A DNA stretch of 51,631 nt from Acidobacteriaceae bacterium (lineage in GTDB: Bacteria > Acidobacteriota > Terriglobia > Terriglobales > Acidobacteriaceae), in NCBI GenBank assembly GCA_049800615.1, contig JBARKD010000406.1, positions 1-51,631 on the forward strand, read 5' to 3'. Position numbers and translations under genes: made by a program. Below, one piece after another: positions 6,752-49,391 of this stretch (positions within the stretch are counted from its first letter, which is position 1; each line of letters starts with the position of its first letter). Below the pieces are notes generated by a model. It was not told the DNA's origin. It saw only the letters and a list, made by a program, of their open reading frames with translations, and did no database searches.

Positions 6752-7705
6752 CTACTTATCACCTGCGGCCTCTAACGCCCTGCGCCCCAGTTCGCGAAAG
6801 GTGGCTCGCAATTCGGGTGGGTTGTGCACCACAATCCTGCATCCCATGGCCAGCAGCATCCCGCCAAACATCCCCAACCGGTCCCGCCCGCAACGCAGAC
6901 GCGTACCGCCTTGTTGGGCTTCCGTGGCTACGCGCCACGGTGCAAACATGGGCCCAGCCTCCTCGATCGGCATGTCGATCCACACGTCAATTTGATAGTC
7001 CGATTGCAAAAACGGCATGCGCTCGGCGAGGAATTGGCGAGCATCGAAGTCAGCCGGGCGTTTGAAGGTCGCGTTGGAGATTTCCAGACCGCTGACGCGA
7101 TCCAGGCGAAACGTGCGGCGGTCCTTGCGCAGAAGGCAATGGCCGATAACATACCACCGGCCATCGCTGTGCAGAACTCCGTGGGGCTCAATCTGCCGCT
7201 GGGAGACAGCGCCGTCGTGAGCCTTGTAGGAGAAGCGAATTCTCTTACCGGCGCGGATAGCCGATGCAGCGCGGATCAGAAGCTCAACGGGCGTCGAGAC
7301 TACCCATGGACCGGGCTCGATGGCCACAACATCCTCCACCGTGCGGATGCTCTCGTGGAGTGCGTGCGGCAGAACCCGGGCCAATTTGGCGAGCGTACTC
7401 TCGGTGGCCGGCGCAAAAGCTGATAACCCAATCTGGCGCAATGCGCGCAGTCCCAGCGATAACGCAAAGGCCTCCTCGTTGGTCAGCAATAAGGGCGGCA
7501 GTCGATAGCCCGGCCGCAATCGATACGCGCCGCCTACCCCCCGGGAAGAGTCGATAGGAATGTGCAGATCCTTGAGGCGAACGATGTAACGCTGCACGGT
7601 GCGCAAGTCGACTTCCAGGCGCTCGGCCAGTTCAACCCCGCTTACATGGTCGCGTGCCTGCAGAATCTCGAGCATGGTCAGCACGCGCGTGATGGGGTCA
7701 TACAT
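6752..7705 (-). CDS. YafY-family transcriptional regulator (HTH plus WYL domain)
   Basis: N-terminal wHTH: RVLTMLEILQARDHVSGVELAERLEVDLRTVQRYIVRL. WYL-type motif: HSDGRWYVIGH. The start was moved to the internal ATG at 7705. The upstream extension to 7900 overlaps the divergent promoter and the dinB-like gene. Confidence 0.85.
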   Translation of the reverse strand: MYDPITRVLTMLEILQARDHVSGVELAERLEVDLRTVQRYIVRLKDLHIPIDSSRGVGGAYRLRPGYRLPPLLLTNEEAFALSLGLRALRQIGLSAFAPATESTLAKLARVLPHALHESIRTVEDVVAIEPGPWVVSTPVELLIRAASAIRAGKRIRFSYKAHDGAVSQRQIEPHGVLHSDGRWYVIGHCLLRKDRRTFRLDRVSGLEISNATFKRPADFDARQFLAERMPFLQSDYQIDVWIDMPIEEAGPMFAPWRVATEAQQGGTRLRCGRDRLGMFGGMLLAMGCRIVVHNPPELRATFRELGRRALEAAGDK

Positions 7706-7800
7706 GCGAAATCGATTCTCCTTCCAATTTACGACAGGATCTGTCGGGAATGCCGCGTACAGTCCAATTGAGCCCATCCAGGGCGACACAGGGAGCGAAA

Positions 7801-8283
7801 ATGACGACCCAAACCAGCGAAGTAAACGTCCTGACAGCGGACCACCTGCTTGAACAATGGCAAGGACACAGGCGGCTGACACGCAAGGTGATCGAGGCAT
7901 TTCCGGAAGACAAGCTATTCCAGTTTTCCGTCGGAGGCATGCGGCCCTTCGCGGACATGGCCTGGGAGTTCATTCGCATGGCTGTACCTATCGTGGACGG
8001 AGTGACCACCCATGAGTGGAAGGAGTTCACCGGAACCAAGCCGACGACCAAGAGCGAGCTTCTCCGGTTTTGGGATGCTCAGACGGATGAGCTGAACGAG
8101 AAGTTCCCGAAGATCCCCCCACACAGGTTCAGCGAGGTGTCGAAAGCTTTCGGCCAATGGGAGAACCCCGGGATCGTGACCATCCAATACGCGATCGACA
8201 ACGAAATCCATCACCGCGGCCAGGGATATGTCTATCTGCGTGCTCTAGGCATCGAGCCTCCGCCCTTCTGGGTGCGCGATTGA
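7801..8283 (+). CDS. DinB-superfamily (DinB_2-like) metal-dependent protein
   Basis: 160 aa with the C-terminal NEIHHRGQGYVY motif typical of DinB-fold proteins. GGGAG lies upstream of ATG 7801. The gene is divergent from the WYL regulator. Confidence 0.7.
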   Translation: MTTQTSEVNVLTADHLLEQWQGHRRLTRKVIEAFPEDKLFQFSVGGMRPFADMAWEFIRMAVPIVDGVTTHEWKEFTGTKPTTKSELLRFWDAQTDELNEKFPKIPPHRFSEVSKAFGQWENPGIVTIQYAIDNEIHHRGQGYVYLRALGIEPPPFWVRD

Positions 8284-15692: not shown

Positions 15693-15882
15693 CCGCCAAC
15701 AAAAACTGTCGGCTGGGAACGATCCTTCCCCTTGCCAGCCTGAACTGTGGAGTCAGTTAACCCCGCCAGCTCCGTTTTCCAAGACCGCAAAAAAAGAAAA
15801 GTGAAATTTAGCGCATTGCAAGGGTTTTTTGCCAGGGAACTCGTTTTTCTGTACTTGGAATTCACTTCTCTCGGAGACTGCC

Positions 15883-17607
15883 ATGTATCAACCCTGGAAA
15901 ATTCTTGTCTATATTGCTGCCGATAACGTTTTGTATCCGGATTCGCAGGTCAGCCTTCGCGAAATTGCGGATTCTAGTTCGTTCAGCGACGTGGAGATCA
16001 CCGTCCAACTCGACGGGCCCACTGCAGCAATGGCCACGCGCTACAGATGCGAGCACGGAACAAAAAAGCTGATATGGGAGGCTCCGGAGGACTACACCGC
16101 GGACCGCGGGGTTCGCCTTGCCGACTTTCTCAACGCCGTAGCGGGGAACTCAACTGTGCACCAGCGCATCCTCCTCGTGCTTTGGGGCGAAGGTGCCGGT
16201 TTGGATCATATCTACTTCTATGGCGACCGGGAGACCGCCAACGGCGCCACCACCACAGAACCGGGACAGGGGCTGTCCTCCAGGCTGGGGAGTCCGGAAC
16301 ACCTGAAAAAGGCCATGCGCGCAGTGCACAGTGCGGCCAACGATGTGCTCGACGGTCAGAATGCAAATCTTTATGTCAAGGACATTCAGCTGGGCCACAT
16401 TCTTCGAGAGTTCACCCGGAAGATAGGCCGTCCCATCGACATACTGGGATTCGACGCTTGCCTGATGGCTATGGCGGAGATTTGCTACGAGGTGCATGAA
16501 TCTGTATCCGTGGTTGTCGGCTCGGACGAAGAAGTGCCCAAAGAAAGCTGGCCGTATTCCCTGATCATGCGCGACCTGGCCAGGTTTCCAGGAATGAATG
16601 CCAATACTTTGGCTACGCTGATCGTGAGCAGGTACGTCGAAAAATATAGTAGTGAGGGCAAGGGCGAAAGAGTTTCGCTGTCGGCAATGAGACTGTCGGG
16701 CTCCGAGGAACTCGGCTCTGCGATGAAGCGTCTGGTCAGCGCGTTCAACTCGGTGGCCGGCGATGTGGCCAGCAAGCGCCGCATCTTTCGTGCACGCGAT
16801 GCTTCACGAAGCGCGGACGAAACCAGCTATGTCGACTTTGGGGTCTTTTGCGAGGAGCTCACGCAATCCTTTGACCCGCATACACCGATACACGCCTGTG
16901 CGAGGGATTTGCTGTTCGTTCTCAAGAACCATGCGTACATTCTTTATCATCGCGACACCGGGGAAGACGGATCCTACGATCCCTACGGCCTTTCTCTTTG
17001 CTTTCCCCAGGCGCTGCCTCCTGATGAAGCCGGGCTTGCTGCTGCAGCTGCGGAGTTCACCATAGCGACGCACACCGCCCTCGGAGGCAAAAAAGATCCA
17101 CCGCACCAAAGTAAGGATCCGCAGGGCGGCATGAAAGATCCACCGCACCAAAGTAAGGATCCGCAAGGTGGCATGGACCCGCAGGGCGGCATGAAAGATC
17201 CACCGCATCAAAGTAAGGATCCGCAAGGCGGCATGGACCCGCAGGGCGGCATGAAAGATCCGCCGCACCAAAGCAAGGATCCGCAAGGTGGCATGGACCC
17301 GCAGGGCGGCATGAAGGATCCGCCGCACCAGAGCAAGGATCCGCAAGGCGGCATGGACCCGCAGGGTGGCATGAAAGATCCGCCGCACCAAAGTAAGGAT
17401 CCCGGAAGCGGCAGGAAGGATCCTCCCCATCAAAGCAAATTCCCTCCCAGTGGGTCGGGAGGCAAATCGTCACCGATGGAGATCACCAGCTATTACATCC
17501 TCTGGGACAGCTACGTGCCGCTCGCATTTAACCGGGAAACGGGATGGGCCGATTTCCTGGAGCGCGTTTTGGCGGACCAAAGCGACACGACCGGAGCCGG
17601 TGCGTGA
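15883..17607 (+). CDS. Clostripain-like (peptidase C11 family) protein with a C-terminal tandem-repeat tail
   Basis: KILVYIAADNVLY and IDILGFDACLMAMAEICYEV...VPKESWPY match C11 family blocks, including the catalytic Cys. The usual WxHGxG block reads LWGEGAG. No signal peptide is present. GGAG lies upstream of ATG 15883. Confidence 0.75.
   Translation: MYQPWKILVYIAADNVLYPDSQVSLREIADSSSFSDVEITVQLDGPTAAMATRYRCEHGTKKLIWEAPEDYTADRGVRLADFLNAVAGNSTVHQRILLVLWGEGAGLDHIYFYGDRETANGATTTEPGQGLSSRLGSPEHLKKAMRAVHSAANDVLDGQNANLYVKDIQLGHILREFTRKIGRPIDILGFDACLMAMAEICYEVHESVSVVVGSDEEVPKESWPYSLIMRDLARFPGMNANTLATLIVSRYVEKYSSEGKGERVSLSAMRLSGSEELGSAMKRLVSAFNSVAGDVASKRRIFRARDASRSADETSYVDFGVFCEELTQSFDPHTPIHACARDLLFVLKNHAYILYHRDTGEDGSYDPYGLSLCFPQALPPDEAGLAAAAAEFTIATHTALGGKKDPPHQSKDPQGGMKDPPHQSKDPQGGMDPQGGMKDPPHQSKDPQGGMDPQGGMKDPPHQSKDPQGGMDPQGGMKDPPHQSKDPQGGMDPQGGMKDPPHQSKDPGSGRKDPPHQSKFPPSGSGGKSSPMEITSYYILWDSYVPLAFNRETGWADFLERVLADQSDTTGAGA
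17092..17439 (+). repeat. In-frame tandem repeat inside the C11-like CDS (7 copies of KDPPHQSK; 4 full 60-bp units)
   Basis: The 60-bp units are at 17134-17193, 17194-17253, 17254-17313 and 17314-17373. Each encodes KDPPHQSKDPQGGMDPQGGM. They are flanked by 42-bp partial units at 17092-17133 and 17374-17415, plus a degenerate copy at 17416-17439. Confidence 0.95.
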
Positions 17608-17651: not shown

Positions 17652-20600
17652 TTATTGCCCGCCGAATGCGGAAAACGCCGCCCAGTAGTAGGGGTGAGAA
17701 GTCTCCGCTTTGGACCTTATGTCTTGCTCCGCGCCTCTTAAGGCGACGTCTACCGTATCCCCTTTGAGCAAGCGAGCGTACAAATTTTCCATCAGCGCGG
17801 AACTGACGGCCGAATCGACGGGCCATTTGCTGGCGATGACGTTGGGAACTCCCGCGCGTAAAAAGAGGAGAACGAGACTTGCAGGATCATCTGGACCCTG
17901 CTCAGTGGTCGCCGTATTGCATGCGGACAGAATCGCCAGTTTCAAGTTTGACATGAGGCCTGGATGAAGCTGCGCCGCACCGAGCAGGACGGTGCGATCC
18001 CCGTTGCGCGAAGCAAGCAGCAATCCAGGTTCCCGGTCTTGTGTTATCGAGTGTCCGGCAAAATGAAACACCTGTGCTTGCGGAAGCGACTGGAGCACGT
18101 TGTCGATCGTCGCGTCTGCTCCCGTCAGCAGATTGCGATGATGAAACTGTATGGAGATATCCTGAGCCTCTTTATTCGCGTCGGGCAGAGGGCGAAGGCG
18201 CTTGCCGGCCGGGGTATTCGACAGCGGATCACCGACCGCCAGGATGAAACTATTCGTTGAAACTTCCCGGTCTCTGCGCAGCCGCCTTGAATAGCCAAGG
18301 CCCGGTGATTCGATTACCTGCATTCGATCCCCTAAATATCCCGCTTCTGTCTTCAGGGCCTGAAAAGGGACAATGTTCAATAGGGTGTCGGGTTCGAGAA
18401 CAATGGTCGTTATATTTTTGAGGGAGGCGCTCACCGGTTCCAGCAGCCATTCGTAGAGGCGGCGGCCTTGCTGATCGATCAAGCTTCGATCCGACGAAGG
18501 GTCGGCGCAAAGGCGGCCGAAAGTGTGGGCGGCAGCCTCGAGTTTTTCCTGGGGCACATCGACCCACGCGGTGTGCAGGCCGGTCGCGTCCACCAGCCAG
18601 ATGGCGAGTCCGTGGGAAAACGACATCCAGGTAAGCAGGGCCGTCCCGGGTTCCAATTTCAATGTTCCCGTGGAGTACGGTGACGTGGACAGCGAGACAT
18701 CTTTTACGGCGGCCGCCGTTCCGGCGCCTGCTGCACGCAACGGCCCAGCGCGGGACCACTCCAGGAGAGCAAAGGACTTGTCGGCATCATGGTAACTCCG
18801 GGTGTATAGCTCAACCAGGGACCTGTAGGCTTCCCACGTAGTCTTCTCCCAGCCGAAAATGGCACTATCCGAATCCAGGGAGTTGCGATTTCGTTCAATC
18901 AGCCGTATCGCTTCCAGGAGATCAGCTCGCGCCCGGTCGGGCCTGCCCAGGCGAGTTTGCAGGGCCCCCTCGGTTTCAAGGTAGAGGATGGTGGCGTACT
19001 GCTTGCTGAAACCATTGAGGGAGGATTGCATCGCATTGAGCCTGCTCGCAGCGAGATCGAATTTGCCCTGGCGCACTTCGAGGGCAGTGCGCTCAATTTC
19101 CAGCGTGGTTTTCGCTGCGTCGGAACTTGTGGCAGTTTGCAGCACCGCTGCGGCTTGTTCGTATTCTCTATCGGCGAGAGGAGTGTCGCCGGCGCTTTCG
19201 GCCACCTCCGCCAGCCAATGGTGTGCTGCCGCAAGGTAAACAACGTCGCCGTCAAGCGTATCCATCAGTACGGTCTCGTCTCCAACGCGCTCGGCCATGT
19301 GCCACATAGCCTCCGTCTCCGCAGCAAAACCAAGATCGGCGTAGAAATTGGCTGCCGAGAGAGGTGGATAGGAGGCCGCCCAGAATCTTCCCAGTCCGCT
19401 TTGGATTTGTCCCCAGGATTCAGGCGACGCCATCCATGAAGTGGCAACGCCGTCCCGATAATAGAGCCCGTCCAGTTCGAGCACCGGGTAGCCTGCGGCC
19501 TGTGCCAGTTCTTGTGCCCGACGGGCGGAGGCATCCGCCGTCATCGGATTGCTGCCGAGAAATTGGCACGCGGAAAGCGCGAACAGTGCTTTGGTTTCGA
19601 TCCAGGCGTAGCGATGATGGCTCGACTGAGCAAGAGCCTTGTTGGCCGCCGGCAAGCAAGTATCCCCTCGTTCGGAGCGGTTCATGCCGATGGCGTAGGC
19701 GAGCTCCGCGGCCGCCACCCCAGCGTGATTACCGGCGGAGAGAAACAGCGCGGTGGACTTGTTGGCGTGCGCAACGATGCCCCCGACGTCCCCAGTGGCA
19801 TTCGCGCGAAATGCCTGGGCCAATTCGCGGGAGCCTTCCTCCCAGGCTGCGCCATGGGGACCATCCACCAGCTCAGCAAGCCAGTCATCATGATGGCGCT
19901 GACGCATTTGCTCCGCGAAGGTCTTGAGCGCATTCTGTGCTTCGAGGCTGCTCGCTGCCTGCTCCCGGGAGGCGTGCGCGGAACCTGCAAGATAAAGCCA
20001 ATCACGGGTCGCGACGTCCATGTAGTCCTCATCCATAGTCAGCGGCCGGCTATTCGCATCGGGTGGGGCACTGTCCAGGGCAACGATGGCCGCGGCAGGC
20101 TCGCGCAAAGGGGCGATCCTCGATTGCTGGTTTTCCTGCATCTTTTGCTGCAAGTTCTTGAGGCGGTCCTGGCCTTCTTCGCGCCAGGCCGGGTCTCGCT
20201 CAACCTGGAGAAAGCGGTCCCAGTCGGAGGCTGCCTCGTGGTACAAAAACATTCGTTCTTCCGCGATGGCGCGGTTAAACAATGCCAGGCTGTTGTCCGG
20301 GGATGTCGCCAGGACTTTACCCAAGTTGTCGATAGCGCGACCGTAATCGATTGCCTGGCCGGTGGCTTCCCCCCGCGCGAAATATGCAGTGGCCAAGTCG
20401 GTGAGCAGCAGGGGAGCATCCGCTTGTGATTCCAGGGCTCGCTGCAGGCTTTGAATGGCTGAGTCGAAGTTGCCGTCCATTAAATCCGCGCGGGCCTTGG
20501 CATCCAGTAGCTCGGGGTCACTGGGCTTTTTGCGTAACTGGGCCGCGATGATCGTTTCAGCTCTGAGAAGCGAACCAGGCTTGTCGAGATCGGACGCCCC

Positions 20601-21221
20601 TGTCCCGCGTTCCTGGTGGATCGGCGCGTGTTTTGCTTCTGGGATGCGGAGTTCCAGCGTGCGGTGCTCTGAGTAGGCGTCTGCCAGCAGCATCTGAGGC
20701 GTAGGGGAAGGGAATCGATGAAGCGCTAACAGGGCGGAAAGGACGACGAGCACAGTCGCCGCGACGGCATAAAGTGACCAGAATCCCAAGCGGCGGGGAC
20801 GCGAAGCTGGCGGGAAGCCTCCCGGCGGGTAGCCTCCCGGCGGGACACCTGGGCGCGCGGCGCCTGATCCCGTGGAAAGGCCCTGGGCCAGAACCCTCTG
20901 TCGAGCTCGATCGGCGCTGGCCAGATCTCCAATTCGGGCTTCCTCGTCCGCCGTGCTCTCCGCGGTCAGGTCAGTGAGGGCCTCCTGGAGTAGCGGTGCG
21001 CAATGGTCGCAGCCTGCCGCGTGGCTTAGTAGACGCTCCGGATCGGGGTGTATGCCGACCGCTAGCTCCAGCCAGGCGTTACCCGGGGGACATTGCGGGC
21101 CGCGGAGCACTGTCTTGGCTGCCCTCAGCTGAGCGAGACGCTCCATGGCCTCCTTTTGGGTTCGCAGCTGCGTTTGGCAAAGCTCACAGTATTGCAGATG
21201 GGCCCATGCACTCTCGTTCAT
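17652..21221 (-). CDS. Membrane-anchored anti-sigma factor (ZAS, HxxxCxxC) fused to a TPR array and a C-terminal CHAT (caspase-like) protease domain
   Basis: The N-terminus carries AHLQYCELC and HAAGCDHC. A Pro/Gly linker follows, then RPRR, then the TM helix FWSLYAVAATVLVVLSALLAL (about nt 20721-20789). The middle region is long and TPR-like. The C-terminus carries the CHAT dyad blocks VFHFAGHS and LAILSACNTA. The start could be ATG 21221 or GTG 21233. Confidence 0.85.
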   Translation of the reverse strand: MNESAWAHLQYCELCQTQLRTQKEAMERLAQLRAAKTVLRGPQCPPGNAWLELAVGIHPDPERLLSHAAGCDHCAPLLQEALTDLTAESTADEEARIGDLASADRARQRVLAQGLSTGSGAARPGVPPGGYPPGGFPPASRPRRLGFWSLYAVAATVLVVLSALLALHRFPSPTPQMLLADAYSEHRTLELRIPEAKHAPIHQERGTGASDLDKPGSLLRAETIIAAQLRKKPSDPELLDAKARADLMDGNFDSAIQSLQRALESQADAPLLLTDLATAYFARGEATGQAIDYGRAIDNLGKVLATSPDNSLALFNRAIAEERMFLYHEAASDWDRFLQVERDPAWREEGQDRLKNLQQKMQENQQSRIAPLREPAAAIVALDSAPPDANSRPLTMDEDYMDVATRDWLYLAGSAHASREQAASSLEAQNALKTFAEQMRQRHHDDWLAELVDGPHGAAWEEGSRELAQAFRANATGDVGGIVAHANKSTALFLSAGNHAGVAAAELAYAIGMNRSERGDTCLPAANKALAQSSHHRYAWIETKALFALSACQFLGSNPMTADASARRAQELAQAAGYPVLELDGLYYRDGVATSWMASPESWGQIQSGLGRFWAASYPPLSAANFYADLGFAAETEAMWHMAERVGDETVLMDTLDGDVVYLAAAHHWLAEVAESAGDTPLADREYEQAAAVLQTATSSDAAKTTLEIERTALEVRQGKFDLAASRLNAMQSSLNGFSKQYATILYLETEGALQTRLGRPDRARADLLEAIRLIERNRNSLDSDSAIFGWEKTTWEAYRSLVELYTRSYHDADKSFALLEWSRAGPLRAAGAGTAAAVKDVSLSTSPYSTGTLKLEPGTALLTWMSFSHGLAIWLVDATGLHTAWVDVPQEKLEAAAHTFGRLCADPSSDRSLIDQQGRRLYEWLLEPVSASLKNITTIVLEPDTLLNIVPFQALKTEAGYLGDRMQVIESPGLGYSRRLRRDREVSTNSFILAVGDPLSNTPAGKRLRPLPDANKEAQDISIQFHHRNLLTGADATIDNVLQSLPQAQVFHFAGHSITQDREPGLLLASRNGDRTVLLGAAQLHPGLMSNLKLAILSACNTATTEQGPDDPASLVLLFLRAGVPNVIASKWPVDSAVSSALMENLYARLLKGDTVDVALRGAEQDIRSKAETSHPYYWAAFSAFGGQ

Positions 21222-21319
21222 AGGACCACCCACCCATTCCCTCCCCTCGACACTCGAGAGCAGGATTTCGTCGATCTGGTCGCTATCTAGATGGGGTTCC
21301 AGACTCTTGCTTTTCCTTT

Positions 21320-22012
21320 CTAGAACGATTGCGCGGGTAAAAGACCTTCGCGGGAAGCTGGCGCGATTGCCGGCTCGGCCCCGTTCCGATCCGCCATCCG
21401 GGTCCGCAATTCCCTGGTAATGCGAAGGATGATGCTTTCTATCCCCTTGGTGGTCAGCATAATTCCGGGCAGGTCGGCGATGGCCCGGGCGGAGAGTCCG
21501 GCTCGGTAATGGAGCCAGAAAATCTGGGTGTTCCGCTCCTGGTCCGGTCCGGGGACGCAGATCTCCAGGAAGCGGTTGATTTCCTCAATCAGGACCGTGC
21601 GCTCAATGGATTGCTGGCTGCCGTCCGAGCCGTCGGCGGCCAGGGGAACGAAATCCTGAGCAAGTTGTTCAATGTGGCCGGAGCCTCTCTTCAGGCTATA
21701 GGACGACTTGAAATGGTCGCGAACGACGTTGGCGGCTACGACCTTGACGTACCCGATGAAGGCGTCCGGGCGCTGCTGCTGGAAATTACGCAGAATCCGG
21801 AAGTTGTCGGTGCATAGCTTGAGGTAGGTTTCTTGGATCAGATCATCTACCGTCTGCCGGGAGGAATCGCCCAGGCGTGCTGCGGTGCGCAGGATCACGG
21901 TGGCAATGAGCCGGTGAAAGCGGCGGATGAACTCCTCCCATGCGTCGGCGCTTCGCGAAGCAGAGCATTGACGCACGAGTTCCTCGATCGACAGGCAGGA
22001 GTAATTCTCCAT
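21320..22012 (-). CDS. ECF-type RNA polymerase sigma-70 family factor
   Basis: 230 aa. The region 2-like block is DDLIQETYLKLC. The region 4 HTH is IFWLHYRAGLSARAIADLPGIMLTTKGIESIILRITRELR. The gene lies 98 nt upstream of the ZAS-CHAT gene. Confidence 0.85.
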   Translation of the reverse strand: MENYSCLSIEELVRQCSASRSADAWEEFIRRFHRLIATVILRTAARLGDSSRQTVDDLIQETYLKLCTDNFRILRNFQQQRPDAFIGYVKVVAANVVRDHFKSSYSLKRGSGHIEQLAQDFVPLAADGSDGSQQSIERTVLIEEINRFLEICVPGPDQERNTQIFWLHYRAGLSARAIADLPGIMLTTKGIESIILRITRELRTRMADRNGAEPAIAPASREGLLPAQSF

Positions 22013-22396
22013 ACATATTCCTGAGGGGGAGGCAACCCATTGTACCGTGGGTTGCGCACAACGCTGCTTAAAAGAAACAACCGGGTGAATTTTCGATGCG
22101 CTGACGCACAGGGTGATTCGAGGAAATCACGTTTTTCCCCTATGCCGTTGCCACGCGGCAGGTCCATCGTTGTTGCAGAAAGAAAGGCAAGGGTAGCTGC
22201 TACCGAAGGCCCGCCGCCGGACGGCCAGGTCCTCGGGAGCAGCGGGTGGTCCGGATTCCTGGTAGTGGCCCAGTGGATTCTCGGCGTTTCCGATGCAAAT
22301 CACTCTCGTCGATGAAGGTGGCCAGGTTCGGACAGCTCCATGGATGGGATACCATGCTTGCGATCGTAAAACGTTTACCTGGGAAAGAATCTGGCC

Positions 22397-23820: not shown

Positions 23821-24285
23821 GGCGTGAAGGGGCGGGGCTTCAGAGTCTGCGTGCGAACTGCGGTTTGTTCGATCCGCCATCGGCCTTGGCATGAAAACAA
23901 TGGGGCGGCGCTTCCTGGAAAAGCCAACCTTTCCACGCTCACAGAATTGTCGTCCCGACCGGAGCGAAGCGAAGGGATCTGCGGTTTGTTCTATCTTTTT
24001 CCGCCCCTAGACAGAATTGTCATCCCGAGAGCCTGTGACTTTTTGGCGTGAAGGGGCGGGGCTTTTCAGCCCCGCCGTCAACCGCGCACTAAGTCCCGAA
24101 GGGACGATTGAAAATAGCCCAGGATGAAAATCCTGGGACCGGTTATGAAAAACGAGTCAGTCCCGCAGGGACGGCTGAAAATACCCCAGGATGGAATCCT
24201 GGGCGCGCTGCTGACCCCCATCACGTAACCAAATCTCGGTAGGGTTAGTTCTCACTCAGACTCTTCAACCCCGCCGTCAAATCGA
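23821..24285. repeat. Intergenic cluster of at least three short hairpin-forming repeat families (REP/MITE-like)
   Basis: Family A: 23943-23990, with fragments at 23857-23875 and 24013-24030, and a further copy at 99-153. Family B: ggcgtgaaggggcggggctt at 23821-23840 and 24045-24064, with ccccgccgtcaa at 24070-24081 and 24269-24280; it contains the hairpin ggcggggc-ttttca-gccccgcc. Family C: a tandem pair at 24092-24137 and 24159-24203, each with two hairpins (gtccc-N3-gggac and cccaggat-N3/4-atcctggg). Confidence 0.8.
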
Positions 24286-26703: not shown

Positions 26704-26747
26704 GTGTTCGTTTGTGAACACAGCGAACGTTCTGTACAGTGTTCGCT
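26704..26747. promoter_or_regulatory. Two adjacent inverted repeats in the divergent TPR / ECF-sigma intergenic region
   Basis: gtgttc-gtttgt-gaacac lies at 26704-26721 and agcgaac-N12-gttcgct at 26722-47. GAAC and CGTC elements are nearby, as expected of ECF-type promoters, but the spacing is not canonical. Confidence 0.3.
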
Positions 26748-26801
26748 GCGTCCGAAAAAAGACAAAATTCTTGCCTAACCGGAAGCGGAATCTACGGTCT
26801 A

Positions 26802-27377
26802 ATGCGCTGCATGGAAGAAAGCGACGATTCCATTCGCCGGGCAGTCCTGTCCGGGGATAAGGACGCGTACCGCGGGCTGGTCTCGCGCTATAGCCAGGTT
26901 GTGTTCCGAGCGGCCTATCGCATTACAGGCAATGAAGCCGACGCGGACGAGGCAGTGCAGGAGGCATTCCTGCGCGCGTACCAGAGGCTCGATAGCTTTG
27001 AGGGACGCTCCAGCATGGCGACATGGATCTATCGCATTGCGGCCAACTGCGCGCTCGACATCGTGGCCCGCAGAAAGCCCGAGGCGCGCATTGGCGAAGA
27101 CAACGATCCCGAGGAACGGCAAGTGCAGCTGGCCGACAGGCATGCCGGACCGGATCGGCTGTTGCTAAGCCGCGAAATTGAAGCGGCGCAGAGCGCGGCC
27201 ATGCAGGAACTGACGCCGGTCGAACGGACGGCGTTTGCCTTGCGGCACATGGAAGATCGTTCCACAGAAGAGATTGCCGCCGCGTTGAATATTGCACCCA
27301 ACGCAGCTAAACAAGCGGTCTTTCGCGCTGTCAGGAAATTGCGGCGTCAACTTGCGCCGCTATGGGTAAACACATGA
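26802..27377 (+). CDS. ECF-type RNA polymerase sigma factor
   Basis: The region 2 block is EADADEAVQEAFLRAYQRLDSF. The region 4 block is RTAFALRHMEDRSTEEIAAALNIAPNAAKQAVFRAVRKLR. The start is ambiguous between 26802 and 26811. Confidence 0.85.
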   Translation: MRCMEESDDSIRRAVLSGDKDAYRGLVSRYSQVVFRAAYRITGNEADADEAVQEAFLRAYQRLDSFEGRSSMATWIYRIAANCALDIVARRKPEARIGEDNDPEERQVQLADRHAGPDRLLLSREIEAAQSAAMQELTPVERTAFALRHMEDRSTEEIAAALNIAPNAAKQAVFRAVRKLRRQLAPLWVNT

Positions 27378-28153
27378 AACACGTAAGCGAAACGGAAATG
27401 ATCGAGTACTACTACGAGGAATCTGCCGCCATGGCCGAGTGCGAGCGCCATTTAAAGCAATGCGCGGAGTGCGCGAAGAGCTATGCGGAGCTGGTCAGGG
27501 ACCTCAAACAGGTGAAGACGCCGCTAACTCCGGAGAGAGGCGAAACCTACGGCGAGCAGGTTTGGCATGCAATCCGCGGTTCGCTGCCGGTATATGAGAA
27601 GGAGAAATCGAATCGCGCCTGGCTGCAATTTTGGCGGCCGTTGAGTTGGGCGGCGGCTTGCTCCGTGTTGATCGCTGTTGGATTTCTCGCGGGACGTCAT
27701 TGGGAGCGCAAGCAGGCGCCGGCGGTTGCTGTGGCTGCGGCTGCCGATCCGCAAGCGCGTGAACGCGTTGTGGTTGTCGTCCTCGGCGACCACCTGGACC
27801 GCTCGGAGCGGCTGCTGGTGCAACTGAATCATGCGAGCAGCCACAATGACTGGGAGGCTGCTCCGTTGCAGAGCGAGGCGAGAGAGCTGTTGGCGACCAA
27901 CCGGCTAATCAGGCAGAGTGCGGGCAACGCCGGCAATCTGCAGGTTGAAGCTTCGCTCGATCGGCTGGAGCGTCTGCTGGTTGAACTGGCGAACCAGCCT
28001 GACGGCATCAATGAAACGAACCTGAAGCGGCTTCGCGAGGAGATGAATACCGATGGCCTTCTCTTCGACATTCGCGTCTTGCGCTCGCATCTCCCCGCGC
28101 AAGCCATCGCGCCACAAAGCATTTCTACAAGTACGAAAGGGGCTGCGATTTAA
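27374..28153 (+). CDS. Anti-sigma factor (ZAS motif) with a single TM helix
   Basis: ATGA overlap with the sigma gene stop. The motif CERHLKQCAEC fits C-x2-H-x3-C-x2-C. The TM helix is LSWAAACSVLIAVGFLA. Confidence 0.8.
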   Translation: MKHVSETEMIEYYYEESAAMAECERHLKQCAECAKSYAELVRDLKQVKTPLTPERGETYGEQVWHAIRGSLPVYEKEKSNRAWLQFWRPLSWAAACSVLIAVGFLAGRHWERKQAPAVAVAAAADPQARERVVVVVLGDHLDRSERLLVQLNHASSHNDWEAAPLQSEARELLATNRLIRQSAGNAGNLQVEASLDRLERLLVELANQPDGINETNLKRLREEMNTDGLLFDIRVLRSHLPAQAIAPQSISTSTKGAAI

Positions 28154-45449: not shown

Positions 45450-48400
45450 ATGGCGAACGTAAGACCGGGGTTGCTCATCGCAGTCTTCCTTGCATGGGTA
45501 CCCTTAGTCTTTGCCCATGGCCAACAACCCTGTGCGCCCGGTCAATCAACCGCGTGTATTCGAGGAAGTGTTCATCGGCCCGATAACGACCTCCCTGCCG
45601 CCCGCACTGCCGTCCGCATCGATGATGTCGGCAGTCAGCTTACTTCGGACCATGGCGATTTTGGATTTCCCCTTCTGCTACCGCTTCAGGTGGGTCACCC
45701 GGTAAAGTTCCACGTCGATGGATGGATCGTTATCGATCCATGTGTTGGGGAACGCGGCCGGACCTACCTCCCGGCACCGGATGCTGAACCGATCGGAATC
45801 AAGGTTCTTCACTCACAAGAGACATTGCAGTCGACGGAAAGCCTGCGCTGCATCGTGCAGGAGAGAAGTTCCAGGTTCGAGCAGAAGACTGCCGCCCTGC
45901 CTAAGCCAGGTGGCCGTTCTTCGCTGACCGGTGATCCGTTGCGGCGAGACGTACCAACCGGGGTGATGTCTCTTTACCGCGACGGCTCTCATGAAGATGA
46001 TCCGTCAGCTGTCCGATATATAGATGTTGTCTATTTCCCCGGATCCCCGGCTGGCGGCCCCTTTTTTCAAGACCCAAGTGAGCCAACGGCTAATCCTGCT
46101 GTCGATGCGTTCACCTTGCAGCAGGCCAAAGAGCTCGGTGTATCACCGCGGGACCTTGCCGCCGCTTTGGCAAGATGGACCGAAACCGCCACCGATCCAT
46201 ACGACAAGGGACTGGCGGCACTCTACAACCAGCATTTTGCGGATGCAGCCAAATACATTGCGGCTTCGATACCATCACCGCCAGGTAGGTTTCTTAACAG
46301 ATATGTGCCTCTCGCCCATGCGGAGTATGAGCAGGGGCACTATTTGCTGGCCAGAAATTATCTCCAGAAGTTGCTTGACGTCCACCCCGACGACCCGATT
46401 CTGCTAGCAGCGATGGCTGCGGTGCTTTCGGCGCAGGGAAAGTACTCCGAGGCAGAACAGCTCCTGCAGCGTTCCCTGGCGCAGGCCACCGCGACGTTTG
46501 GCAGCGATCATCCGCTGGTGGCGCAGGACGAGGGTGCGCTGGCGGAAATCTATTTGGCGCAAGGCCGTTATGTCGAGGCAGAAGCTTCGAATACGAAAGC
46601 ATTAAGTGCGATCGAAAAGATGATGGGCCCGGAGAGCCCCTTTGTTGCCGCGGGCCTTGCTGTGAGTTCGGAGATCTCCGCTAGCCAGGGCCATTACTCT
46701 CAAGCCGAGCCTCCGCTGCAGCGCGCCCTGAGGATTGTCACAGCGACGCTGGGACCCCAGAATCCAGAGGTTGCGAAATACATGGCGGCTCTGGCGGAAG
46801 TTTATCTTTCCCAAGGCCGGTATTCGGAGGCCGAGGTCCTTTACACGAAAGCCCTGGCTTTGAGCAGTAGGTCCTCCGCGGCAAGCCCTGGAGTCGTCCG
46901 CATCCTGGCTGGTTTGGCGTGGGCGAACGCTGCTCAGGGGCGTTTCAAGGAGGCGGAGGATCTCGACAAGCGTGCCGTCACCATGAGTGAGGGATCGGTG
47001 GGACCAGACAATCCGGCAGTGGCCTCTCTTCTGACGGATCAGGCACACCTGTATCTCAACCAGGATCGTCCACAGGAGGCCTTCGTTCTTTATCAACGCG
47101 CGATGGCAATTGACACCAGCGCTTCCGGACAGGATAGTCCAGTAGTCGTTCGGGATTTGGACGGAATGGCCACGTCTCTGGCCGCGCAAGGCAAGCTTGC
47201 GGACGCAGAGCCTTTGCTCAAGCAGGCCTTGGCCGTCGGCGCGAAAGGTTCAGGGGCGCAAAATCCAGCGCAGGCGATCGTCCTCTACGATTTGGGCCGC
47301 GTTTACGCGGATCAGGGGCGGCAAGATGAGGCTTTGTCTCTTTTTCAGCAAGCCTTGTCTATCAATGAGCACGCCTCGGGGCCCAATAGCCTGGGTGTCG
47401 CGCATGATCTCGCCGGTTTGGGCTTATTGCGTGCTTCTCAGGGAAAACTGTCAGAGGCACAACAGCTTCTGGAGCGCTCACTGGGTATCACCGAGAAGGT
47501 CGGGGGTCTTTTGACTCCTGATCAGGCAGATACGCTGGCTAACCTGGGAAACATCGACCGAATGCAAGGCCGTTATGCCGAAGGACAGGTGCTTTATCAG
47601 CGAGCGTTGAACATCGATGAGAAATCGTTCGGACGAGACACCCCTGAGATTGCTCGTGACCTGGACGGCTTGGGGGGAATCCTTGCTCAGCAGGGCAAAA
47701 TGGCGGAAGCGAAACCTCTTTTGGAGCGTGCATTAGCCATCAGCGAGATGGCGGCCGGGATGAACAGTTTTGATCGCGCGACCATCTTCTCCGACTTGGG
47801 GAGATTCTATCGTCAGCAGGACCGCCCTGCCGACTCCGAGACAATGTACCGGCGTTCTCTGGCAATCGATGAAAAGGCGCCGGAACACGACAATCCTGCG
47901 CTTGTGAATGACCTCGATGGATTGGGCGTGTCGTTGGCTGAGCAGAACAAGTTCGACGAGGCAGAGCCGCTGCTCAAGCGCGCAGTCGCACTCGGTGGGG
48001 ATCTGCCGGAACGGCAGGCTTTCGCCGGTGTACTCGCAGACCTCGCGTTGCTCTACATCGACCAGGAAAAATATGTGCCGTCCGAAGAGCTTTATAGGCG
48101 CGCCCTGGCGATGGATAAGGAGGCATCGGGGGAGAAGAGCGAAGCTGTGGTTGGCGATCTCGATGGGATCGGTTCGGCCTTGACCGGCCAGGAGAAGTAC
48201 CGGGACGCCGAGTTGGCGTACAAAGCGGCGATGGCCATGCTGACGGGGCTAAAGGGGCAGGGGAGCCCGGAACTATCACCCATTCTTTCGCATGAAGGTG
48301 AGTTGTACCGCGACCAGGAGAAGTATGCGCAGGCCGCGGCGGCTTATAAGCGGGCCCTTGTCCTGGATGAGAAGGCGGCGGGTGGCGCGGCAGACGCGAG

Positions 48401-49391
48401 TGTTGCGCAGGATCTCTCCGCTTTGGGAGCGGTCTATCATTCTCAGGAGAAGTACGCAGCGGCTGCGGCAATGTACAAACGCGCCCTGGCGATCAACGAA
48501 AAGCTGGGAGCAGAAACCCGGCCTGTTGCCGACGATCTCGCCGGCCTCGCTTCCGTGTATCAGGACCAGGAGCGGTATCCCCAGGCTGAGACACTGTACC
48601 GGCGTGCGTTGGCTATCGACGAAAAGTTGTCGGGGAAAGAGAGCGCAGTGGTTGCGGAAGATCTGTCCGCTTTGGGCCTCTTGCATCGTCTCCAGGGAAA
48701 TTACACTGCCGCGGCAGCTATGTATCAACGCGCCCTGGCCATCAATGAAAAGCTGGATGGCGGCAGCTGGACGGTAGCCCAAAACCTATACGACTTAGCC
48801 TATGTTGATAGGTTGCAACAAAAATACCCGCAAGCCGCTGCCAGATACAGGCAGGCTCTTGCTATCGACGAAAAGTTGTCTGGGGAAACAAGTCAGGGCG
48901 TTGCCGCCGATTTGTCGGGCTTAGGGTCGATCTATCGCATGCAAGAGAAATACCCGCAAGCGGAGGCCTATTACAAGCGTGCCCTTGCCATCGAGGAAAA
49001 ACTGTTCGGGTCACAAAGTCCGAGCCTTGCGAATGACTTGTCTGACTTAGCGCAAGTTTATCGCCAGCAGAAGAGATACCCTGACTCGGAAGCGCTAGCC
49101 AAACGTGTTCTTGTTATGGAGGACAAACCAGCTGGGTCGGACTCCCAAAGCGTAGCCTATGACCTTACGGAGTTGGCCGCCGTTTATAACGGTGAAAACA
49201 GGCATGCTGATGCGGAGCCTCTTCTCGAGCGGGCCCTTGCTCTTGATCGAACCGTGTATGGAGACAACAGCGAATATGTAGCTGCCACGGCTGAAAGCTT
49301 AGGGCAAACGCTCCATGAATTGAACCGGGACCAGGAAGCAAAGACCTATCAGGCTCAGGCAGCAAAAATTCGCGAGGAGAACCATCAATGA
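45450..49391 (+). CDS. Secreted giant TPR protein (about 24 tandem 41-42-aa TPR_12-like units) with an N-terminal beta-sandwich region
   Basis: GGGAGG RBS. Signal peptide MANVRPGLLIAVFLAWVPLVFAHG. The N-terminal region of about 270 aa has a CarboxypepD_reg-like stretch. It is followed by 24 repeats of the form Y.RALAI.EK..G...P.VA..L..LA.VY..Q.(R/K)Y..AE. Confidence 0.85.
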   Translation: MANVRPGLLIAVFLAWVPLVFAHGQQPCAPGQSTACIRGSVHRPDNDLPAARTAVRIDDVGSQLTSDHGDFGFPLLLPLQVGHPVKFHVDGWIVIDPCVGERGRTYLPAPDAEPIGIKVLHSQETLQSTESLRCIVQERSSRFEQKTAALPKPGGRSSLTGDPLRRDVPTGVMSLYRDGSHEDDPSAVRYIDVVYFPGSPAGGPFFQDPSEPTANPAVDAFTLQQAKELGVSPRDLAAALARWTETATDPYDKGLAALYNQHFADAAKYIAASIPSPPGRFLNRYVPLAHAEYEQGHYLLARNYLQKLLDVHPDDPILLAAMAAVLSAQGKYSEAEQLLQRSLAQATATFGSDHPLVAQDEGALAEIYLAQGRYVEAEASNTKALSAIEKMMGPESPFVAAGLAVSSEISASQGHYSQAEPPLQRALRIVTATLGPQNPEVAKYMAALAEVYLSQGRYSEAEVLYTKALALSSRSSAASPGVVRILAGLAWANAAQGRFKEAEDLDKRAVTMSEGSVGPDNPAVASLLTDQAHLYLNQDRPQEAFVLYQRAMAIDTSASGQDSPVVVRDLDGMATSLAAQGKLADAEPLLKQALAVGAKGSGAQNPAQAIVLYDLGRVYADQGRQDEALSLFQQALSINEHASGPNSLGVAHDLAGLGLLRASQGKLSEAQQLLERSLGITEKVGGLLTPDQADTLANLGNIDRMQGRYAEGQVLYQRALNIDEKSFGRDTPEIARDLDGLGGILAQQGKMAEAKPLLERALAISEMAAGMNSFDRATIFSDLGRFYRQQDRPADSETMYRRSLAIDEKAPEHDNPALVNDLDGLGVSLAEQNKFDEAEPLLKRAVALGGDLPERQAFAGVLADLALLYIDQEKYVPSEELYRRALAMDKEASGEKSEAVVGDLDGIGSALTGQEKYRDAELAYKAAMAMLTGLKGQGSPELSPILSHEGELYRDQEKYAQAAAAYKRALVLDEKAAGGAADASVAQDLSALGAVYHSQEKYAAAAAMYKRALAINEKLGAETRPVADDLAGLASVYQDQERYPQAETLYRRALAIDEKLSGKESAVVAEDLSALGLLHRLQGNYTAAAAMYQRALAINEKLDGGSWTVAQNLYDLAYVDRLQQKYPQAAARYRQALAIDEKLSGETSQGVAADLSGLGSIYRMQEKYPQAEAYYKRALAIEEKLFGSQSPSLANDLSDLAQVYRQQKRYPDSEALAKRVLVMEDKPAGSDSQSVAYDLTELAAVYNGENRHADAEPLLERALALDRTVYGDNSEYVAATAESLGQTLHELNRDQEAKTYQAQAAKIREENHQ

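Follow-up and report, generated by a model that had tools for sequence, protein, structure and literature searches.

Is an extracytoplasmic function (ECF) sigma gene that is followed by the gene of a large membrane-anchored protease-like protein a new kind of sigma switch, or a form of a known one? This question is raised by a contig of an Acidobacteriaceae bacterium (GenBank assembly GCA_049800615.1, contig JBARKD010000406.1, positions 1 to 51,631), referred to below as the window, which is the whole stretch of DNA that was analysed. In the window, an ECF sigma gene lies directly upstream of a gene for a protein with a Cys/His-rich head, one transmembrane helix, a tetratricopeptide repeat (TPR) body and a C-terminal CHAT domain. 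A first-pass annotation had read the pair as a self-contained, protease-gated ECF switch and was aware of no characterised anti-sigma factor with such an architecture. Our analysis supported the domain reading, but the logic has already been published for DdvA/DdvS of Myxococcus xanthus, so the premise of novelty falls. The pair is very probably a two-gene operon of an ECF sigma factor and a transmembrane anti-sigma factor of the DdvA-DdvS type, with a DdvA-like mechanism. The architecture and the proposed mechanism are already known from DdvA/DdvS, and the window pair is a distant variant of them and not a new type of switch. New here are an abundant and distant acidobacterial branch, a doubled cytoplasmic head, the lack of linkage to defence genes, a probable CTG start codon and a juxtamembrane motif that crosses phyla.

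Homology to DdvA and distribution of the gene pair

DdvA and DdvS are a transmembrane TPR-CHAT anti-sigma factor and an ECF sigma factor of M. xanthus (Nucleic Acids Research 2018, PMC6061681; Science Advances 2024, PMC11506125). Cryo-electron microscopy structures of DdvA (8ROT/8RW5) and a structure of DdvANt (8RLZ) are available, and genetics and nuclear magnetic resonance have also been published (PMC6061681, PMC11506125). The head of DdvA is a cytoplasmic CHCC zinc anti-sigma domain (ZASD) of approximately 70 amino acids (aa), which binds sigma2 and sigma4 of DdvS (PMC11506125). It is followed by a flexible juxtamembrane linker and a periplasmic scaffold-TPR-CHAT body of approximately 900 aa, which forms an arrow-shaped dimer (PMC11506125). 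The ZASD sequesters the sigma factor, and the site-2 protease RseP degrades DdvA only once the TPR-CHAT body has been removed (PMC11506125). As the site-1 step, the authors proposed a signal-induced autoproteolysis of CHAT in trans, and they also proposed a reactive oxygen species (ROS) arm (PMC11506125).

A single-sequence search of the PDB with the window protein missed DdvA. A family profile was built from 30 full-length relatives and searched against the PDB with hmmsearch, and DdvA chain 8rot_B was the best natural protein (E = 2.7e-13). The aligned pieces were collinear along DdvA from the zinc anti-sigma (ZAS) motif (DdvA residues 22–41, weak) through the transmembrane helix with QRTLEARV (residues 74–115, weak) and the scaffold TPR (residues 186–293, i-E = 1.7e-6) to CHAT (residues 834–969, i-E = 1.2e-7). 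DdvA H862/C907 aligned with the family residues H1061/C1105, where residue numbers follow the 1193-aa version of the window protein (GTG start). The AlphaFold2 (AF2) model of the full protein had a mean predicted local distance difference test (pLDDT) score of 82.5 and a predicted TM-score (pTM) of 0.73 as a monomer. DdvA was its top Foldseek match (E = 1.5e-18, TM-score 0.72–0.74 normalised to DdvA, about 1070 columns), and Csx29 (TM-score about 0.4) and the separases (about 0.3) were far behind. By profile and by modelled fold, the window protein is distantly homologous to DdvA and shares its order of domains, and the belief that no such anti-sigma factor had been characterised does not hold. 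In the opposite direction, a search with the DdvA CHAT fragment for full-length DdvA relatives returned short fragments only.

The two systems share the gene order, sigma and then anti-sigma with tight spacing. In both proteins, a cytoplasmic head, which in the window protein is a putative zinc anti-sigma domain, is followed by one transmembrane helix, a juxtamembrane RTLExR, a scaffold TPR that includes a long helix, the TPR superhelix and the C-terminal CHAT with its His-Cys dyad, and the proposed logic of CHAT-gated regulated intramembrane proteolysis (RIP) may also be the same. The main architectural difference is the doubled zinc module. The head of the window protein has two zinc-type modules (about 145 aa) and two extra helices, whereas that of DdvA is one 70-aa CHCC bundle. 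The window protein is also about 225 aa longer, its host belongs to Acidobacteriota and not to Myxococcota, no island of CRISPR or cyclic-oligonucleotide-based antiphage signalling (CBASS) genes lies near the pair, and its promoter looks housekeeping-type and not autoregulated.

Relatives were scanned with one genome per species, and full-length relatives were found only in Acidobacteriota. They came from Acidobacteriaceae, Terracidiphilus, Ca. Angelobacter, Acidiferrales, Sulfotelmatobacter, Bryobacterales and one Pyrinomonadaceae. All named homologues, together with two Acido-Lenti-1 RNAs in the window, assign it to Acidobacteriota (Terriglobia). In 31 of 31 genome loci, the gene directly upstream, in the same orientation, encoded a clear homologue of the window sigma factor (E from 1e-14 to 3e-75). 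The same adjacency was present in five close relatives (L080–L084), so the expectation that the neighbourhood of sigma and CHAT genes would be kept across Acidobacteriota was borne out. In a set of 1.84 billion, a profile of the Cys-rich head retrieved 967 representatives with E ≤ 1e-10, of which 265 reached E ≤ 1e-30. Publicly, all relatives are annotated just as 'CHAT domain-containing protein'. DdvA-like proteins had been reported only in Myxococcota and one Comamonas (BLASTP, at least 50% coverage; PMC11506125), and their distribution is therefore much wider than published. DdvA-like TPR-CHAT anti-sigma factors are common across Acidobacteriota, with hundreds of clusters at 50% identity. 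The acidobacterial branch extends the DdvA concept and makes it easier to test, and the concept itself is unchanged.

Relatives from Blastocatellia/Pyrinomonadaceae (L032, L034, L036, L039) kept the body, consisting of the transmembrane helix, an RPLEAR motif, TPR and CHAT. Their heads are Cys-free ('YLLGELxxEE'), and the upstream position is taken by a small sigma-like gene of another type (Sigma70_r4_2). Because these bodies carry another head and another sigma-like gene, heads appear to be exchangeable on one sensor body.

Sigma gene, anti-sigma start codon and cytoplasmic head

The ECF sigma gene was confirmed at the position given by the first-pass annotation (Table 1). Its product matched Sigma70_r2 (E = 1.4e-5) and TIGR02937 sigma70-ECF (E = 1.2e-13, over the cutoff). 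A profile of 25 syntenic sigma homologues aligned with RpoE/AlgU-type ECF sigma factors over sigma2 and sigma4 with E about 1e-4, and no characterised ECF sigma factor was detectably closer to the window sigma than the RpoE-like ones. The alignment of the sigma family (A3) showed an invariant Cys (C16 of the sigma factor) near the N-terminus and a linker of approximately 40 aa between sigma2 and sigma4. Several sigma subclades also had a conserved C-terminal tail (GLLPAQSF / KGFRPAESY). ECF54 was considered as the group of the window sigma, since it has CHAT neighbours, and was rejected because it is actinobacterial and without an anti-sigma factor. The main text of Casas-Pastor 2021, consulted for the ECF group, does not mention CHAT.

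The CHAT gene had been described as an open reading frame (ORF) of 1189 aa, 98 nucleotides (nt) from the sigma gene. This ORF exists. Its canonical starts are a GTG at 21233 (1193 aa) and an ATG at 21221 (1189 aa), on the minus strand with the end at 17652. The frame is open from the canonical starts back to the sigma stop codon, with a CTG at 21302. The codons upstream of the GTG (21234–21302) encode LEPHLDSDQIDEILL, the conserved first helix of the family, and translation from the CTG gives (CTG)-EPHLDSDQIDEILL. Most homologues begin with the same first helix, M-[EG]-P-H-L-D-S-x-Q-I-E-x-L-L, including its near-invariant His. CTG was found at the homologous start codon in four sequences (the window, L080, L083 and L084; proteins 62–81% identical), and an AAAGGA motif precedes the start codon in all four alike. 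TTG replaces CTG in L081 and L082, 17 and 15 nt past the sigma stop. Substitutions across the start stretch were mostly synonymous, with one in-frame indel. Because the upstream frame encodes the first helix of the family, the window anti-sigma gene probably starts at the non-canonical CTG, with 17 nt between it and the sigma stop, and encodes 1216 aa. The first-pass coordinates and the public gene call of 1164 aa (P0001) are then most likely too short, and the gap would be 17 nt and not 98 nt. The first zinc motif was missed by the public call for the window protein and by the calls for P0003 and P0005. The gap of 15–17 nt suggests that sigma and anti-sigma are co-translated.

The motif HxxxCxxC is present twice in the first 80 residues of the window protein, as had been noted in the first pass. 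Residues H12, C16, C19, C48, H71, C75 and C78 were invariant in 30 of 30 family members. Among 167 full-length representatives, H12, C16 and C19 were kept in all 155 whose N-terminus was called, C48 in all 163 in which it was present, and H71, C75 and C78 in 165–166 of 167. The predicted ligands form two modules. Module A (HHCC-type) comprises the His of helix 1 (codon 21291–21293), H12, C16 and C19, and module B (CHCC-type) the other four. The N-terminus was modelled with pLDDT 88–97 over residues 10–90. In the model, module B is a three-helix unit (helices 51–59, 65–74 and 78–91), and its ligands are placed as C6/H28/C32/C35 of DdvA, that is, before α1, at the end of α2, in the loop and at the start of α3. 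The subsequent linker (aa 121–155) had low pLDDT, and a 15-nt tandem repeat at 20809–20845 encodes its PPGG repeats. The zinc-finger family zf-HC2 was matched at module A by 15 of 30 family members (best E = 1.4e-5) and at module B by 8 of 30 (best E = 0.0028, a weak match). Profile support is moderate for module A and weak for module B.

RslA, RsiW, ChrR and RsrA are anti-sigma factors of the zf-HC2 type (PF13490). The window head resembles them in its H-x3-C-x2-C at the α2/α3 junction with the fourth ligand upstream, in its N-terminal cytoplasmic position and in the ECF partner encoded upstream. It differs from these classical zinc anti-sigma factors in that the motif occurs twice in tandem, a periplasmic protease module of roughly 1000 aa is attached, and the profile similarity is weak. 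The same tandem HHCC + CHCC head was found on proteins of about 360–380 aa without CHAT (P0131, P0142 and P0150), in which a transmembrane helix and a coiled coil are combined with a small C-terminal domain that is beta-rich and predicted to be periplasmic. Because the tandem head also occurs on these shorter proteins, it appears to be a general acidobacterial anti-sigma module. A description of the tandem zinc head was not found in a limited literature search, and the doubled head, on CHAT proteins and on the shorter ones, would be an undescribed cytoplasmic module.

Table 1. Coordinates of the sigma/anti-sigma pair and its parts in the window
Feature	Position	Strand	Evidence
-10-like element TACAAT	22039–22044	(-)	26 nt upstream of the sigma ATG
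ECF-type sigma gene, 230 aa (sigma2, long linker, sigma4)	21320–22012	(-)	Sigma70_r2, TIGR02937
17-nt intergenic spacer with Shine-Dalgarno-like AAAGGAAAAG	21303–21319	(-)	Same motif and 15–17 nt spacer in L081, L082, L083, L084
Anti-sigma (TPR-CHAT) gene, 1216 aa from the probable CTG	17652–21302	(-)	Upstream frame and relatives
Putative zinc module A, HHCC-type, cytoplasmic	21117–21302	(-)	Invariant ligands; zf-HC2 in family members
Putative zinc module B, CHCC-type, cytoplasmic (C48, H71, C75, C78)	20961–21101	(-)	Invariant ligands, AF2
Two more cytoplasmic helices (aa 95–122), then disordered Pro/Gly linker to RPRR	20781–20951	(-)	AF2
Single transmembrane helix (aa 152–174), predicted N-in	20712–20780	(-)	Only hydrophobic segment; AF2 helix 156–172
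Periplasmic juxtamembrane motif LLADAYSEHRTLELRIPEAKHAPIHQERG	20592–20690	(-)	Conservation in 167 representatives
Periplasmic scaffold and TPR superhelix (aa 220–839, about 620 aa)	18717–20576	(-)	Pfam TPR, DdvA profile match, AF2
CHAT caspase-like domain	17655–18656	(-)	PF12770

Juxtamembrane motif, CHAT dyad and the proposed release of sigma

The Pro/Gly linker, the RPRR and the single transmembrane helix with the N-terminus inside were as first annotated. Three Arg (RPRR) precede the helix, no Lys or Arg follows it, and an acidic stretch comes after. Because these charges obey the positive-inside rule, a single-pass N-in/C-out topology is predicted.

The juxtamembrane consensus is LLAxAYxEHRTLELRIPGAxYAP...RG. 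R191 was kept in 167 of 167 representatives, and R196 and Y187 each in 166 of 167. The counterparts of this motif are QRPLEARI in the Blastocatellia variants and QRTLEARV in the DdvA linker, where R109 and R114 are the homologous Arg residues. The segment was modelled with pLDDT of about 90. The segment just outside the membrane is a conserved strand and not a variable linker.

The helical part of the periplasmic body was confirmed as TPR-like, with a length of about 620 aa. TPR_2 and related Pfam families matched around aa 240–350, and the model of aa 220–839 was all-helical, with about 30 helices and high pLDDT. The C-terminal CHAT domain with HFAGH and LSACNT, seen in the first pass, was matched by PF12770 with E = 1.8e-53 (aa 922–1191; 182 bits against a cutoff of 24; model positions 3–288 of 289). 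The predicted dyad consists of H1061 (codon 18051–18053, in HFAGH) and C1105 (codon 17919–17921, in LSACNT), the two residues that align with the DdvA dyad. H1061 was kept in 167 of 167 representatives and C1105 in 166 of 167. The near-invariance of the dyad argues for a selected catalytic role. Comparison of two very distant branches thus left the dyad, the zinc ligands and the juxtamembrane Arg motif as the strictly conserved parts.

The gene pair, the order and topology of the domains, the full-length homology to DdvA and the extreme conservation of ligands, dyad and juxtamembrane motif are the basis on which we infer a DdvA-like mechanism. At rest, the Cys/His-rich head would bind zinc and hold the co-expressed ECF sigma factor at the membrane. 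The periplasmic scaffold-TPR-CHAT body, presumably a dimer as in DdvA, would sense an extracytoplasmic signal, and its bulk would shield the transmembrane helix from RseP. Upon the signal, the His-Cys dyad of CHAT would become active and the periplasmic body would be removed, most likely by a cut in the juxtamembrane segment of the partner protomer. RseP would then cleave inside the membrane, and cytoplasmic proteases would degrade the head. In the last step, the sigma factor would be freed to RNA polymerase and would transcribe its regulon.

It is plausible that the Arg-containing conserved strand beside the membrane is a clan-CD cleavage or docking site. Like the window protein, separase carries a CHAT-type caspase domain after a helical/TPR superhelix, and it cleaves at Arg in ExxR-type sites. 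It differs in being eukaryotic, cytoplasmic, monomeric and regulated by securin. We speculate, tentatively and with more doubt than confidence, that AYxEHRTLELRIPGA is the autocleavage site of CHAT (after Arg, as in separase and other clan-CD proteases) or a strand that docks in the active site of the partner, and that the tandem HHCC + CHCC head clamps sigma2 and sigma4 with separate zinc modules. If true, clamping by separate modules would sequester an ECF sigma factor in a new way. The juxtamembrane Arg motif would be a specific candidate site for autoproteolysis of the DdvA type, and could open the unproven central step of the DdvA model to a concrete experiment.

Several results weigh against a DdvA-type anti-sigma factor released by its own CHAT domain. 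The identity to DdvA is only 16–17%. For DdvA itself, autoproteolysis is only a hypothesis; the dyad mutants were silent at rest, and no cleavage has been seen so far (PMC11506125). The window N-terminus gave no match to zf-HC2 (PF13490) even at E ≤ 10, and the gathering threshold was not reached. The head profile searched against the PDB had RslA (E = 0.019) and RsiW (E = 0.12) as its top matches, both weak and aligned on module A. Module B alone, used as a profile against the PDB, found no anti-sigma structure, and Foldseek with the isolated N-terminal model, which is small and helical, gave no significant match. An ECF-type autoregulatory promoter motif was sought upstream of the sigma homologues and was not found, and beside the pair no gene other than sigma was conserved family-wide in 31 loci that could represent a regulon. 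Because the window N-terminus is non-significant against zf-HC2, the anti-sigma assignment of the head holds at the family level only, where the ligands and the zf-HC2 matches support the zinc anti-sigma head read in the first pass. The anti-sigma function of the protein is well supported by context and DdvA homology, and it is putative for the head itself.

These weaknesses give room to the idea that the protein is not an anti-sigma factor at all, so that the sigma factor merely drives the expression of a membrane-anchored periplasmic CHAT protease whose head is an unrelated zinc finger. The missing zf-HC2 match of the window copy and the public annotation of the relatives by their CHAT domain alone would fit. 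This idea has to be set against the universal adjacency of the sigma gene with its gap of 15–17 nt, the collinearity with a proven anti-sigma factor, the ligand spacing and helix layout of ZAS type, and the zf-HC2 matches in half of the family. The Blastocatellia relatives, moreover, swap in another anti-sigma-like head and still have a sigma gene upstream. We regard it as very improbable. If the two proteins are a sigma/anti-sigma pair, the release of sigma could instead depend on the head, by cytoplasmic zinc-thiolate sensing of redox state or singlet oxygen in the style of RsrA/ChrR/RslA. The two modules would then allow a graded or dual response, and TPR-CHAT would be a scaffold or act on other substrates and would leave the anti-sigma factor itself uncut. 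Consistent with this are the seven invariant Cys/His in two ZAS-like motifs, the role of many ZAS proteins as redox switches and the ROS arm that the DdvA authors proposed. The occurrence of the tandem head on CHAT-less proteins of about 360 aa also indicates that the head can work without the protease. Many ZAS domains, however, are not redox-sensitive. Because the dyad and the juxtamembrane motif are conserved as strictly as the zinc ligands, a proteolytic function coupled to the membrane-proximal segment appears to have been selected, and release by redox sensing is improbable in our judgement.

The remaining doubt concerns the protease that makes the first cut. In classical RIP, an external site-1 protease (DegS- or Prc-like) would cleave, and TPR-CHAT would serve only as the sensor and steric block or would have a periplasmic ligand or an invader protein as its substrate. 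CHAT autocleavage has never been seen in DdvA, RseP acts after removal of the body by any means, and the CHAT site of DdvA was described as incomplete, without the three-helix motif (PMC11506125). No such external protease is conserved beside the pair in the 31 loci, however, and the invariant Arg-containing juxtamembrane motif, common to the family and DdvA, has the appearance expected of a clan-CD protease site or docking strand. We consider an external site-1 protease unlikely, and CHAT-gated release of the DdvA type remains our preferred explanation.

Promoter, defence context and neighbouring genes

In 20 of 25 loci, a TAn[AG]AT element was found 13–28 nt before the start codon of the sigma homologue, compared with 3.2 loci on average and at most 8 in shuffled sequences. 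TG usually stood directly 5′ of it (TGTAnAAT), and a conserved -35 element was not found in the 25 loci. The -10-like element is probably a housekeeping-type (extended -10-like) promoter of the operon. Because this housekeeping-like TGTAnAAT is the sole conserved element, a prediction of the regulon was not possible. A bipartite TGACTTA-N16-GCGAA from k-mer counting was tried as an ECF promoter and rejected, since it proved to be coding sequence from the 3′ end of ALAD, the upstream gene in one subclade. The flanking genes were likewise rejected as a regulon, being either non-conserved or housekeeping genes (ALAD etc.) vertically inherited in one subclade.

No cas genes, CRISPR arrays, CBASS or PADLOC defence matches were found in the 51-kb window, in agreement with the first-pass annotation, and a defence-system reading of the window was rejected as there was no PADLOC match. 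According to the DdvA authors, only a subset of DdvA-DdvS-like pairs lies near defence systems (PMC11506125), and the lack of CRISPR context is therefore unremarkable. The earlier analogy with type III-E Craspase stands only at the level of the TPR-CHAT fold. Csx29 also has a caspase-like dyad, and its protease action ultimately frees an ECF sigma factor. It differs in being soluble and cytoplasmic, in its activation by RNA-bound Cas7-11 and in cutting a separate protein, Csx30. Membership in the Craspase system was rejected. The window sigma scored 20 bits (E = 4e-4) against NF041236, the NCBIfam model of the type III-E sigma factor, whose cutoff is 100, and no Cas7-11/gRAMP, array or Csx30 was found in the window.

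The neighbours of the pair are ordinary metabolic genes and a second, unrelated ECF sigma gene. A Peptidase_C11 gene (clostripain-like, clan CD) lies at 15829–17607 (+), convergent with the CHAT gene, and its product has no obvious signal peptide. Three close relatives (L081, L082 and L017) share the convergent C11 gene, and most other loci lack it. It may be a partner or target specific to the subclade, or the arrangement may simply reflect vertical synteny. The 3′ part of the C11 gene contains 60-bp tandem repeats (17092–17402 (+), 4.8 copies, 93% matches), which encode KDPPHQSKDPQGGM-type repeats.

The second ECF sigma gene (Sigma70_r2 + r4_2) is located at 26739–28153 (+) and overlaps a 263-aa ORF without a Pfam match, which may encode its own anti-sigma factor. 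Two HEAT-repeat proteins are encoded after it, and a TPR protein before it on the opposite strand. A WYL regulator with a helix-turn-helix domain (PafC-like) was annotated at 6752–7900 (-), and defence or DNA-damage genes, which are frequent WYL partners, were not seen nearby. The 1313-aa product of the gene at 45450–49391 (+) is made up almost wholly of TPR_12/TPR_10 repeats (NPHP3/MalT-like) and lacks a CHAT domain. Two adjacent Acido-Lenti-1 small RNA motifs (RF01687; 54.5 and 38.6 bits) are located at 24092–24203 (-).

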